Positions 2,275 through 3,012 of a stretch of 64,000 nucleotides of DNA are shown here, piece after piece. Source of the DNA: Escherichia coli (lineage in GTDB: Bacteria; Pseudomonadota; Gammaproteobacteria; Enterobacterales; Enterobacteriaceae); assembly GCF_045037415.1 (NCBI RefSeq), contig NZ_CP173438.1. One strand, 5' to 3'. Under the pieces are notes generated by a model. The model searched no databases. It had not been told where the DNA came from and worked only from the letters and a program-made list of their open reading frames with translations. Position numbers and translations under genes: made by a program. Numbering within the stretch: position 1 is the stretch's first letter; each line of letters starts with the position of its first letter.

Positions 2275-2379
2275 ACTCTTTTGCTGGAATAAATAGTTAT
2301 TGCGAATAGGTGCTGCTAAATGTTGGTTGCTTGTGTAAAATATAGTGGTAAGGTGTCTTTTTTATAGTGGTAAGTACGC

Positions 2380-2988
2380 ATGGACTATTTTTACATAGCA
2401 ACTAAATCGCAAAATCCTTGGGTTAAGTATAGGCCTTTGGCAGTAGGAGATTTAGCTAGCACCTCATTCCCAAATCCCTTTTTTAATTATTTCTTAAGTT
2501 CAAACATCCCTCCAATACCAGTAAATGTTAACGGGCATCTAACTGACTATACGAGAATGCAGTGGCTTTATGGCCTAAAGACAGGGTCACTTACTACTAA
2601 GTGTTCTGTACAGGATATAGCGGCAGTTGGTCAAGAATTGGCTATGCATTTTTGTAAATATACTAGAGAACTGATTTGGGAAGCCGTTCGAGTTGAATAT
2701 TACCCAAAAAAGCCTTCAAGACAGAAATGCTTATGGGTTTCACAAGGTGAAGAAAGTCTTTACTATTGGATTTCGCAGTTGGGATTGGGGGACAATCAGA
2801 CTGTGTTCAGAGTTGAGTTGGATGGAGTTATACATGAGGCGAGTGATGAACATTTGATGAATGACGATATACCGTATGATATTGCCTTAGAAAAAGCTCA
2901 TAAATATTGGAGTGGTGAAATAGTTGATCCGTTAAAAAAGGAAATACTTTTTGAAGGAAATATGCGGATTCTAGAGCACATTTTATAG
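2380..2988 (+). CDS. Hypothetical protein, 202 aa; AT-rich orphan cargo gene between the spanins and the HNH/terminase genes
   Basis: Clean ORF with no overlapping alternatives; two 12-nt direct repeats TATAGTGGTAAG upstream (2341..2352, 2363..2374); no recognisable family. Confidence 0.6.
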   Translation: MDYFYIATKSQNPWVKYRPLAVGDLASTSFPNPFFNYFLSSNIPPIPVNVNGHLTDYTRMQWLYGLKTGSLTTKCSVQDIAAVGQELAMHFCKYTRELIWEAVRVEYYPKKPSRQKCLWVSQGEESLYYWISQLGLGDNQTVFRVELDGVIHEASDEHLMNDDIPYDIALEKAHKYWSGEIVDPLKKEILFEGNMRILEHIL

Positions 2989-2991
2989 CCG

Positions 2992-3012
2992 CCTTCTGGC
3001 GTTTTTTGTTGC
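2992..3012 (+). terminator. Weak terminator-like hairpin after the orphan gene
   Basis: Short GC stem (CGCC/GGCG) followed by TTTTTTG. Confidence 0.3.

Follow-up and report, generated by a model that had tools for sequence, protein, structure and literature searches.

A DUF2441 gene with a predicted ADP-ribosyltransferase fold as probable exchangeable cargo in the late operon of an Escherichia coli lambdoid prophage

RESULTS

The 202-aa ORF is a gene under selection between the lysis and packaging genes

We analyzed a stretch of 64,000 nucleotides (nt) of Escherichia coli DNA (RefSeq assembly GCF_045037415.1, contig NZ_CP173438.1), here termed the window, in which an open reading frame (ORF) for a protein of 202 amino acids (aa) is located between the lysis and the packaging genes of a lambdoid prophage adjoining zinT. 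The prophage genes are arranged in the order Q-like antiterminator, AT-rich ATPase gene, lambda-type holin, GH24 endolysin, Rz/Rz1, 202-aa ORF, HNH, P27-type TerS, TerL, portal, HK97 protease and capsid, and contractile tail (Table 1). The ORF proved to be a DUF2441 gene, and we are confident in regarding it as exchangeable cargo of the late operon. The explanation that we favor as a whole, to which we give a somewhat better than even chance, is that of a swappable late-operon cassette for a stand-alone, NAD-dependent conflict enzyme with an ADP-ribosyltransferase (ART) fold.

A first-pass annotation, made from the DNA letters without database searches, had described the ORF as a compositionally foreign orphan that could be assigned to no family and that had a repeat-bearing upstream region of its own. 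The ORF and its low guanine-plus-cytosine (GC) content, put at about 38%, were borne out: the GC content is 37.8% overall and 32.5% at third codon positions (GC3), compared with 50 to 53% for the holin, endolysin, and Rz genes on the left and 54 to 59% for the HNH, TerS, and TerL genes on the right. The statement on the family did not hold, since the protein matches Pfam DUF2441 (see below) and is already present in the RefSeq annotation as WP_021562677.1, "DUF2441 domain-containing protein."

The ORF is a real gene under selection. In comparison to two 78%-identical homologues, the ratio of nonsynonymous to synonymous substitution rates (dN/dS) was 0.09 (locus L008) and 0.07 (locus L025), with dS near saturation, which excludes decay of the gene; the ORF is also unbroken in the three further E. 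coli copies whose sequence was read. The N terminus is kept among homologues (MDYFYIATK, MDFFYIATK, and MDYYHIADK) and lies within the confidently folded part of an AlphaFold2 model of the protein, and for these two reasons we take the ATG at 2380 as the right start. Database entries of 114 and 143 aa were considered as truncated or pseudogene alleles and rejected, because the same DNA holds the intact 202-aa ORF; they are alternative start calls, and in GenBank the weak Shine-Dalgarno sequence ahead of the true start codon probably favored them. The sole truly disrupted copy among those seen is a 76%-identical one in E. coli GCA_012700625.1 (L010, 4929-5534), in which Trp14 is replaced by TAG. 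At position 2761, the window allele carries T (Tyr128), and the other E. coli copies examined (L039 to L041) carry C (His128).

Sequence prediction gave an acidic protein (isoelectric point [pI] of 5.5) with no hydrophobic segment, no membrane segment, and no signal peptide. Judged by these features, it is not of a membrane, secreted, or typical nucleic-acid-binding type. The DUF2441 family is likewise mildly acidic, with a median pI of 6.1.

Table 1. Features of the DUF2441 locus, with positions in the window
Feature	Position	Strand	Description
Rz i-spanin gene, left border of the slot	1807..2274	+	RefSeq "lysis protein"; embedded Rz1 lipoprotein ORF at 2027-2233
Intergenic region	2275..2379	+	105 nt, AT-rich, 35% GC; without terminator, without sigma-70 consensus promoter
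Direct repeat, copy 1, TATAGTGGTAAG	2341..2352	+	Exact; not conserved in other cassettes
Direct repeat, copy 2, TATAGTGGTAAG	2363..2374	+	Exact; 3' half is GGTAAG (2369-2374)
DUF2441 coding sequence	2380..2988	+	ATG start, 202 aa, 23.4 kDa, predicted soluble
Candidate Tyr5	2392-2394		Strand of residues 3-8; family motif [FY]-[FY]-H-[IV]
Candidate Trp119	2734-2736		Strand of residues 118-122, then helix; C-L-W
Candidate Glu188	2941-2943		First residue of the strand of residues 187-192; E-x-L-F-E-G
Intrinsic terminator, weakened	2989..3007	+	CGCC-TTCT-GGCG (stem 2990-2993/2998-3001), then T6 (3002-3007)
Conserved 3' flank, GTTGCCATCACCATGG...CATCGTGATG	3008..3052	+	Potential second hairpin, z = -2.75
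Packaging-associated HNH endonuclease gene, right border of the slot	3060..3410	+	Followed by P27-family TerS and TerL

The protein belongs to the DUF2441 family and has a predicted ART fold

DUF2441 (PF10386) was the sole Pfam match of the protein (i-E of 3.7e-11, residues 90-179). PHROG 9842 was matched over the full length (E of 2e-130), an NCBIfam scan gave no meaningful match, and one PDB entry was found, 2AUA (BC2332 of Bacillus cereus), with an E value of 1.6e-9 in phmmer and of 7.6e-33, over nearly the full length, with a family profile of 118 sequences. When 1.84 billion cluster representatives were searched with a profile, 1428 relatives were obtained at E≤1e-3, almost all of them single-domain proteins of ∼200 aa; the relatives in AFDB50, none of which carries a name, belong to Proteobacteria, Firmicutes, Bacteroidota, Leptospira, and one Asgard archaeon. 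A family of this size, with a solved structure and a place in Pfam's ART clan (PMC7955679), leaves no room for the term orphan.

The AlphaFold2 model, built on the 118 sequences, reached a pLDDT of 96.2 and a pTM of 0.88 and shares the three-dimensional fold of 2AUA as well as the split beta-sheet fold of ARTs. The list returned by the fold search otherwise consisted almost purely of ADP-ribosyltransferases, headed by Arr (5.8), SopF (5.1), DarT (4.9), and CC0527 (4.7), with OspC3, ArtA, TreX/TreTu, RES toxins, Tpt1, PARPs, diphtheria toxin, and AcrIF11 lower down, and a search of viral folds in BFVD gave three uncharacterized phage proteins and no more. Published classifications agree with this assignment: "BC2332-like" is the SCOP entry d.166.1.6 (PMC3000352), and a ProFunc reverse-template analysis matched a site of 2AUA with the catalytic sites of diphtheria toxin, exotoxin A, and cholix toxin (PMC3024214). 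Membership in DUF2441 and the ART fold can be regarded as nearly certain.

The residues that are invariant among 118 diverse family members (N32, E97, E101, R104, W130, Y176, W177, and G193) are all present in the window protein, as are the near-invariant ones (R96, P112-S113-R114, W119, G149, A173, G179, and E188); Trp119 is found in 110 and Glu188 in 117 of the 118. In ARTs, the strand-1 residue in contact with NAD+ is His (H-Y-E and H-H-h clades) or Arg (R-S-E clade), strand 2 contributes an aromatic residue or Ser, and strand 5 contributes the catalytic Glu, Asp, or Gln. The catalytic triad of ARTs is drawn from strands 1, 2, and 5, and the order and context of Trp119 and Glu188 fit the listed ART motifs, as far as motif order and the secondary structure of the model go (PMC7955679). 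For the first strand, hhalign placed the DUF2441 segment fyHI..vG..i..G on the Arr segment FYHGT..lavGDlittG, with His on His (P of 0.0035, probability of 9%, 23 columns). The Arr profile used here comprised 20 sequences, and its seed sequence was confirmed as Arr-3 by tblastn (100% identity). This match is suggestive of the strand-1 assignment rather than proof of it.

The gene lies in a variable slot between Rz and HNH

For comparison of the slot, we used prophages and phages that share the flanking Rz and HNH genes. Homology of the window to relatives with no cargo or with other cargo ends within or at the end of Rz (2036-2252) and resumes exactly at 3053-3060. The slot is empty in phage vB_EcoM-720R4, where 26 nt separate the Rz1 stop from the HNH ATG; in E. 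coli strain 138 it holds iss/bor on the opposite strand, and ORFs of 74, 124, 106, and 50 aa are found in it in UTI89, SfI, SKA5, and KGu016, respectively. Since the slot is empty or otherwise filled in relatives and its right boundary is sharp, the earlier description of the gene as compositionally foreign cargo stands. The traits of a moron that we observed are presence or absence between otherwise adjacent genes, deviant composition, and a downstream terminator, which is weakened here. The 785-bp cassette is present in 49 of 5,426 complete E. coli genomes, the carriers including ST131 isolates; the identity among the copies is never below 99.5%, and no diverged copy was found among these genomes. 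An Rfam scan of 800-3700 returned nothing.

A second AT-rich cargo gene (39% GC) is located in the same late operon, in the slot between Q and the holin gene (window 1-941; full gene at L001 3233-4624). Its product is an AAA_16/STAND-like ATPase of 463 aa (Pfam E of 2e-9), and a strong 8-bp terminator follows the gene (922-941). No convincing PADLOC family was found for this ATPase, the neighboring cargo proteins had no PADLOC match, and the ATPase gene and DUF2441 did not co-occur in the other phages examined. GiPD474, a recently described Gifsy prophage defense ATPase, was considered as kin of either cargo gene and turned out to be unrelated, being ParA-like and located near the immunity region. 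On the other side of the slot, the SfI genome record ends at a point matching window position ∼3485, within a G-rich stretch between HNH and TerS (window ∼3411-3526) that probably represents cos in this group of phages.

Homologues keep the late-operon position and the low GC content

The genomic contexts of the close subfamily (41 to 80% identity) were checked at L003, L004/L005, L006/L007, L008/L009, L010, phiES15, L025, L027, L028, L030, and L031, and in all of them the gene is part of the late operon and on the late-gene strand, mostly after Rz. In the Scandinavium prophage L003 (65 to 66% identity), it follows Rz, with a KilA-N gene between them, and precedes the packaging genes. In Citrobacter L004/L005 (59%) and in the metagenomic prophages L006/L007 (57%), it stands after the lysis genes and before an Nu1/GpA terminase and a DUF2280-type TerS, respectively, and in L008/L009 and L025 (77 to 78%), it stands after the lysis genes and is followed by more cargo. 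The UV-induced Cronobacter phage phiES15 (41%) has the order Rz, 39 nt, DUF2441, TerS; the IMG/VR contigs L030 and L031 (44 to 46%) have endolysin, Rz, DUF2441, TerS; L027 (47%) has endolysin, Rz, a 143-aa ORF, DUF2441, and a glycosyltransferase; and in L028 (47%), the gene lies between the Q-like gene and the holin gene. The families of the holin, the endolysin, and the terminase differ among these lambdoid loci.

The homologous genes are always poorer in GC than their surroundings (39 to 44% versus 44 to 55%). Because low GC was kept through saturated synonymous divergence, it appears to be a maintained property rather than a sign of recent arrival. As an argument against foreign cargo, the first-pass annotation had named a conserved position combined with phage-like composition; the position is indeed conserved across lambdoid phages, but the composition is never phage-like. 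Among 50,697 deposited phage genomes, two records contain the gene, both of them copies of the induced prophage phiES15, and a further 18 loci were found in IMG/VR, the gene occurring solely in temperate phages and prophages.

The cassette ends in a terminator and a shared 3' flank

The weak hairpin and T-run that had been noted after the stop codon, CGCC-TTCT-GGCG plus T6, could be confirmed. With 4 bp (-6.6 kcal/mol, z = -1.3), the hairpin falls under the 5-bp threshold of the terminator scan. In eight of nine relatives, ACCGCC-N4-GGCGGT followed by T6 lies directly 3' of the stop codon and forms 7 bp, with -11 to -13 kcal/mol, and L003 has one compensatory change from G-C to A-U. By comparison with these sequences, the window hairpin is a real, decayed copy of a conserved terminator from which one G has been lost.

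The terminator together with a flank of ∼45 nt (TTGCCATCACNATGG...CATCGTNATG; window 2989-3052) is common to L003 (6616-6670), L010, and L031/L033 (4610-4670), with different genes downstream, and the same element is found 3' of the unrelated 106-aa cargo gene of phage SKA5 (L053 2501-2570). An element shared across cassettes with other neighbors and with the SKA5 cargo looks like a common cassette end; 3008..3052 is probably such an end or a recombination boundary, and the terminator and flank may serve as a shared recombination boundary for cargo exchange. The upstream ends of the DUF2441 cassettes have no sequence in common, save for those of the window and L010.

Single neighborhoods of distant relatives point to mobile, conflict-type settings, and no partner gene was found

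In none of the DUF2441 contexts examined did we find a conserved neighbor, an antitoxin-like partner, a macrodomain gene, or a chaperone gene, and the longer proteins, the 323-aa relative P0140 and the 382-aa ORF of L036, add no recognizable domain. On Klebsiella pneumoniae plasmid pC280_1 (L046 3293-12233), a distant DUF2441 gene is oriented divergently from an adjoining Septu pair (PtuA, E of 3e-111; PtuB, E of 1e-70) and lies between this pair and a Mokosh-like helicase gene (MkoC, E of 1e-65), with a DUF4145 gene also nearby and insertion sequence (IS) elements flanking the region, which is a plasmid defense island. A B. cereus plasmid (L048 5404-7802) has a distant DUF2441 gene between an erythromycin-esterase fragment and a class A beta-lactamase gene. 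On a metagenomic mobile element (L045 1625-2916), the gene starts 15 nt 3' of an SRAP (abasic-site shielding) gene, and a larger contig with the same protein has a DNA ligase gene ∼3 kb downstream. In a further small island, DUF2441 adjoins Bro-N genes and an amidase gene. These neighborhoods, single cases each, point to mobile, conflict-type settings.

The upstream region suggests transcription with the late operon

The two exact 12-nt repeats reported in the upstream region, TATAGTGGTAAG, are present at 2341-2352 and 2363-2374, 22 nt apart from start to start and with a gap of 10 nt, and each opens with TATAGT. With one mismatch allowed, these are the only two matches in the window (0.10 expected; 0 of 100 shuffles reached two). 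The repeats are absent from every homologous DUF2441 cassette compared and degenerate in L010 only, where TAAAATGGTAGC (aligned to copy 1) and TACAGGCGGAAG each share 8 of 12 positions with the repeat of the window and are no more alike than expected by chance, so that the notion of this region as a regulatory unit of its own was not sustained. L010 is also the only relative with a counterpart of the intergenic region (∼76% identity), which folds no better than shuffled sequences (z = +1.3). As far as the comparison of cassettes goes, the perfect repeat is a recent, lineage-specific feature without evidence of function. GGTAAG, 5 nt 5' of the ATG, resembles a weak Shine-Dalgarno sequence; relatives have GGAAG- or AGGAG-type sequences there. 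Outside this prophage, the only pairs of TATAGTGGTAAG in IMG/VR (L057 1-1500; L060 12900-13100) were rejected as coincidence, because they belong to collagen-like GYSGKSGYSG coding repeats of unrelated phage fiber genes.

A scan for consensus sigma-70 promoters found none on the + strand in 2275-2380, and the TATAGT of the repeats has no -35 partner at 16 to 18 nt; a relaxed scan of the same region gave a sole site, CTGCTA-17-TAAAAT, with 8/12 matches (2313-2341). The terminator scan found nothing between Rz and the 202-aa ORF, suggesting that transcripts of the lysis genes continue into it, and only 35 to 40 nt separate the Rz stop from the DUF2441 ATG in phiES15, L030, L031, and L033, which indicates co-transcription with the late operon. 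Since no terminator intervenes and the upstream regions of several relatives are too short for a promoter, we expect the gene, by analogy with lambda, to be read as part of the Q-antiterminated late message.

An alternative, close to the view of the first-pass annotation, is a moron of the classical type, transcribed in the lysogen from a promoter of its own; it would act in defense or superinfection exclusion, through ADP-ribosylation of an incoming phage component or through abortive infection. Defense, anti-defense, and lysogenic conversion, the roles that the annotation named for such genes, are plausible candidates. The gene has its low GC, its terminator, and its variable slot in common with the lysogen-expressed iss/bor, and its confinement to temperate phages and prophages would fit, as would the distant homologue in the Septu/Mokosh-like island. 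Promoter-like sites with 10/12 matches in the relaxed scan are located just 5' of the genes of L004 and L006, and the TATAGT of the first repeat aligns with a -10-like TAAAAT of L010. Set against this are the missing sigma-70 consensus and the lack of conservation of the repeats, the short upstream regions of four relatives, an orientation that, unlike that of iss/bor, is always that of the late genes, the absence of a PADLOC family, and the absence of an antitoxin for what would potentially be a toxic ART. We consider a lysogen-expressed moron possible but unlikely, and the autonomy claimed for the gene found no support in a region that lacks a consensus promoter and that shrinks to 35 to 40 nt in four relatives.

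DISCUSSION

A late-operon cassette for a putative ART

In the explanation that we prefer, the cassette would consist of the gene, its intrinsic terminator, and the short conserved 3' flank, placed in the Rz-HNH slot of the late operon, and would provide a stand-alone, soluble, cytoplasmic protein made at least from the Q-antiterminated late transcript. This protein would bind NAD+ in a canonical ART cleft formed by residue 5 on strand 1, Trp119, and Glu188. Its target, one that its own host cell can do without, would either receive ADP-ribose or trigger the cleavage of NAD+. The protein would thus be an accessory weapon in phage-host or phage-phage conflict, not a component of lysis or of the virion. 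Since no antitoxin was found in any context, the enzyme would have to spare essential host functions by default, suggesting a target that is foreign (a phage or defense component), a small molecule, or conditional. Taken separately, catalytic activity of the window protein with NAD+ appears to us evenly balanced between yes and no, and a role in conflict is a tentative proposal with a chance a little below even.

Several observations weigh against this explanation. Expression minutes before lysis would leave the protein little time to act in the cell that produces it, and a late-only scenario needs a reason, for which virion packaging, modification of the progeny, and protection in the late phase are possibilities. 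Placing residues 5, 119, and 188 in the NAD cleft relies on motif order, secondary structure, and the hhalign match of 9% probability. For the 202-aa protein, PADLOC-DB 2.0 contains 0 families at E≤1; the literature searched reports no activity for any DUF2441 member; and the association with a defense island is a single case. Position 5 itself is Tyr in the window protein and His in 105 of the 118 relatives, so that the N-terminal [FY]-[FY]-H-[IV] motif and the strand-1 His of an Arr-type NAD contact are missing here, and in the close enterobacterial subfamily, this position is Tyr in 17 proteins and His in 7. To our knowledge, PARP13 is the only well-known ART with a triad that begins with Tyr. 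Its triad is Y-Y-V, and it is inactive (PMC7955679).

The protein could instead be an Arr-like small-molecule ART that inactivates a xenobiotic, an antibiotic, or a signaling nucleotide and so serves lysogenic conversion or detoxification. Arr is the nearest characterized fold and the only family with any profile-level sequence signal, a nontoxic enzyme would need no immunity partner, the family is mildly acidic, unlike typical nucleic-acid binders, and the B. cereus plasmid homologue does lie between an erythromycin-esterase fragment and a beta-lactamase gene. That resistance-gene neighborhood is a single case, however, the similarity to Arr is weak and local, with no match to the Pfam family of Arr, and a strict position in a phage late operon would be unusual for a resistance gene, all of which makes this alternative improbable.

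We give slightly less credence still to a catalytically dead ART fold, in which Tyr has replaced His and which would act by binding: it could soak up or sense NAD+ or immune signals derived from NAD, or it could inhibit a host or phage protein by docking on it. Tyr takes the place of the family His here and in 17 of 24 close relatives, PARP13, with its Y-Y-V triad, is an inactive ART, and the strong purifying selection implies that the Tyr forms are still functional. On the other hand, Glu188 and every other family-invariant residue are kept, and a single clade has both His and Tyr forms at one and the same genomic position, the His forms being those of L006, phiES15, L030, and L031. The shared slot and the retention of the other invariant residues suggest that the two forms are interchangeable and probably isofunctional.

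A lysis-accessory or virion/packaging protein, or a decaying remnant, is hardly credible: a place on the late strand with the lysis module on one side and the packaging module on the other would suit the former, but the gene is absent from most phages with the same lysis or packaging modules, accompanies unrelated lysis and terminase types, and encodes no membrane segment or signal peptide, and a remnant is at odds with the dN/dS of 0.07 to 0.09 and the intact ORF of the three other E. coli copies.

More broadly, DUF2441 might represent an unrecognized class of single-gene, NAD+-dependent conflict enzymes in lambdoid late-operon slots, which would ADP-ribosylate a phage or defense component or consume or bind NAD-derived immune signals and would need no antitoxin; the His-to-Tyr switch of the enterobacterial clade would then be a change of chemistry or ligand, and the terminator and flank would be a recombination handle for exchanging such cargo among phages. 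This is a speculative extension of the explanation that we prefer, and we regard it as rather unlikely in its full form.

Taken by itself, the gene adds a member to a known family, in a kind of slot that is known as well, and nothing about it is surprising in kind. What may be new is the strict confinement of this subfamily to a late-operon niche and the switch from His to Tyr within it, since neither was found in the literature searched. DUF2441 comprises ∼1,400 clusters at 50% identity from bacteria and at least one Asgard archaeon, with a solved structure and an ART fold, and at this locus one subfamily can be linked to a well-defined, recurrent niche without a partner gene, which offers a tractable E. 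coli system for the function of the family. If the protein is an active NAD-dependent enzyme, a stand-alone ART would be added to the defense and counter-defense tools of prophages, and the long-kept AT-richness and the terminator cap would be explained; if it is inert, the known moron slot simply holds another annotated gene for a domain of unknown function.

Comparison with known systems

BC2332, whose structure (2AUA) founded PF10386, shares with the window protein the motifs N-P/T-x-F, RE..E..R, PSR..C-L-[WY], YW.G, and E-L-[LF]-x-G and differs from it in the N-terminal motif, which is Y-H-I in BC2332 and F-Y-I in the window protein; the match names the family, not an activity. Arr, the rifampin ADP-ribosyltransferase (PF12120) of the H-Y-[EDQ] clade, resembles DUF2441 in the aligned N-terminal motif (9%, 23 columns) and in being small and stand-alone without an immunity partner. 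DUF2441 is ∼60 aa longer than Arr, with a long extra helix (residues 77-107), and the niches differ, Arr being found in integrons and plasmids and the DUF2441 gene in a phage late operon. From DarT of DarTG, RES toxins, Tre toxins, and CmdT, the DUF2441 protein is set apart by its acidity (pI 5.5), by the lack of an adjoining antitoxin, macrodomain, or chaperone gene in the contexts examined, and by the lack of a PADLOC match.

Phage-borne enzymes of ART fold that modify host or defense proteins are a precedent for the proposed role. Their genes are early or their products packaged in the virion, unlike temperate late-operon cargo, and they have no detectable sequence relationship with DUF2441 and very low structural scores against it. 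For the location of the gene, the closest parallel is given by bor of lambda and iss of E. coli, which encode a lipoprotein, have their own promoter, and are lambdoid morons in the sense of Juhala and Hendrix. They are oriented on the opposite strand, whereas the DUF2441 gene runs with the late genes in every context, and the scans gave no consensus promoter for the window copy. Both kinds of gene combine foreign composition with a terminator and occupy the same kind of slot, which in strain 138 is literally the same one, between Rz and HNH.

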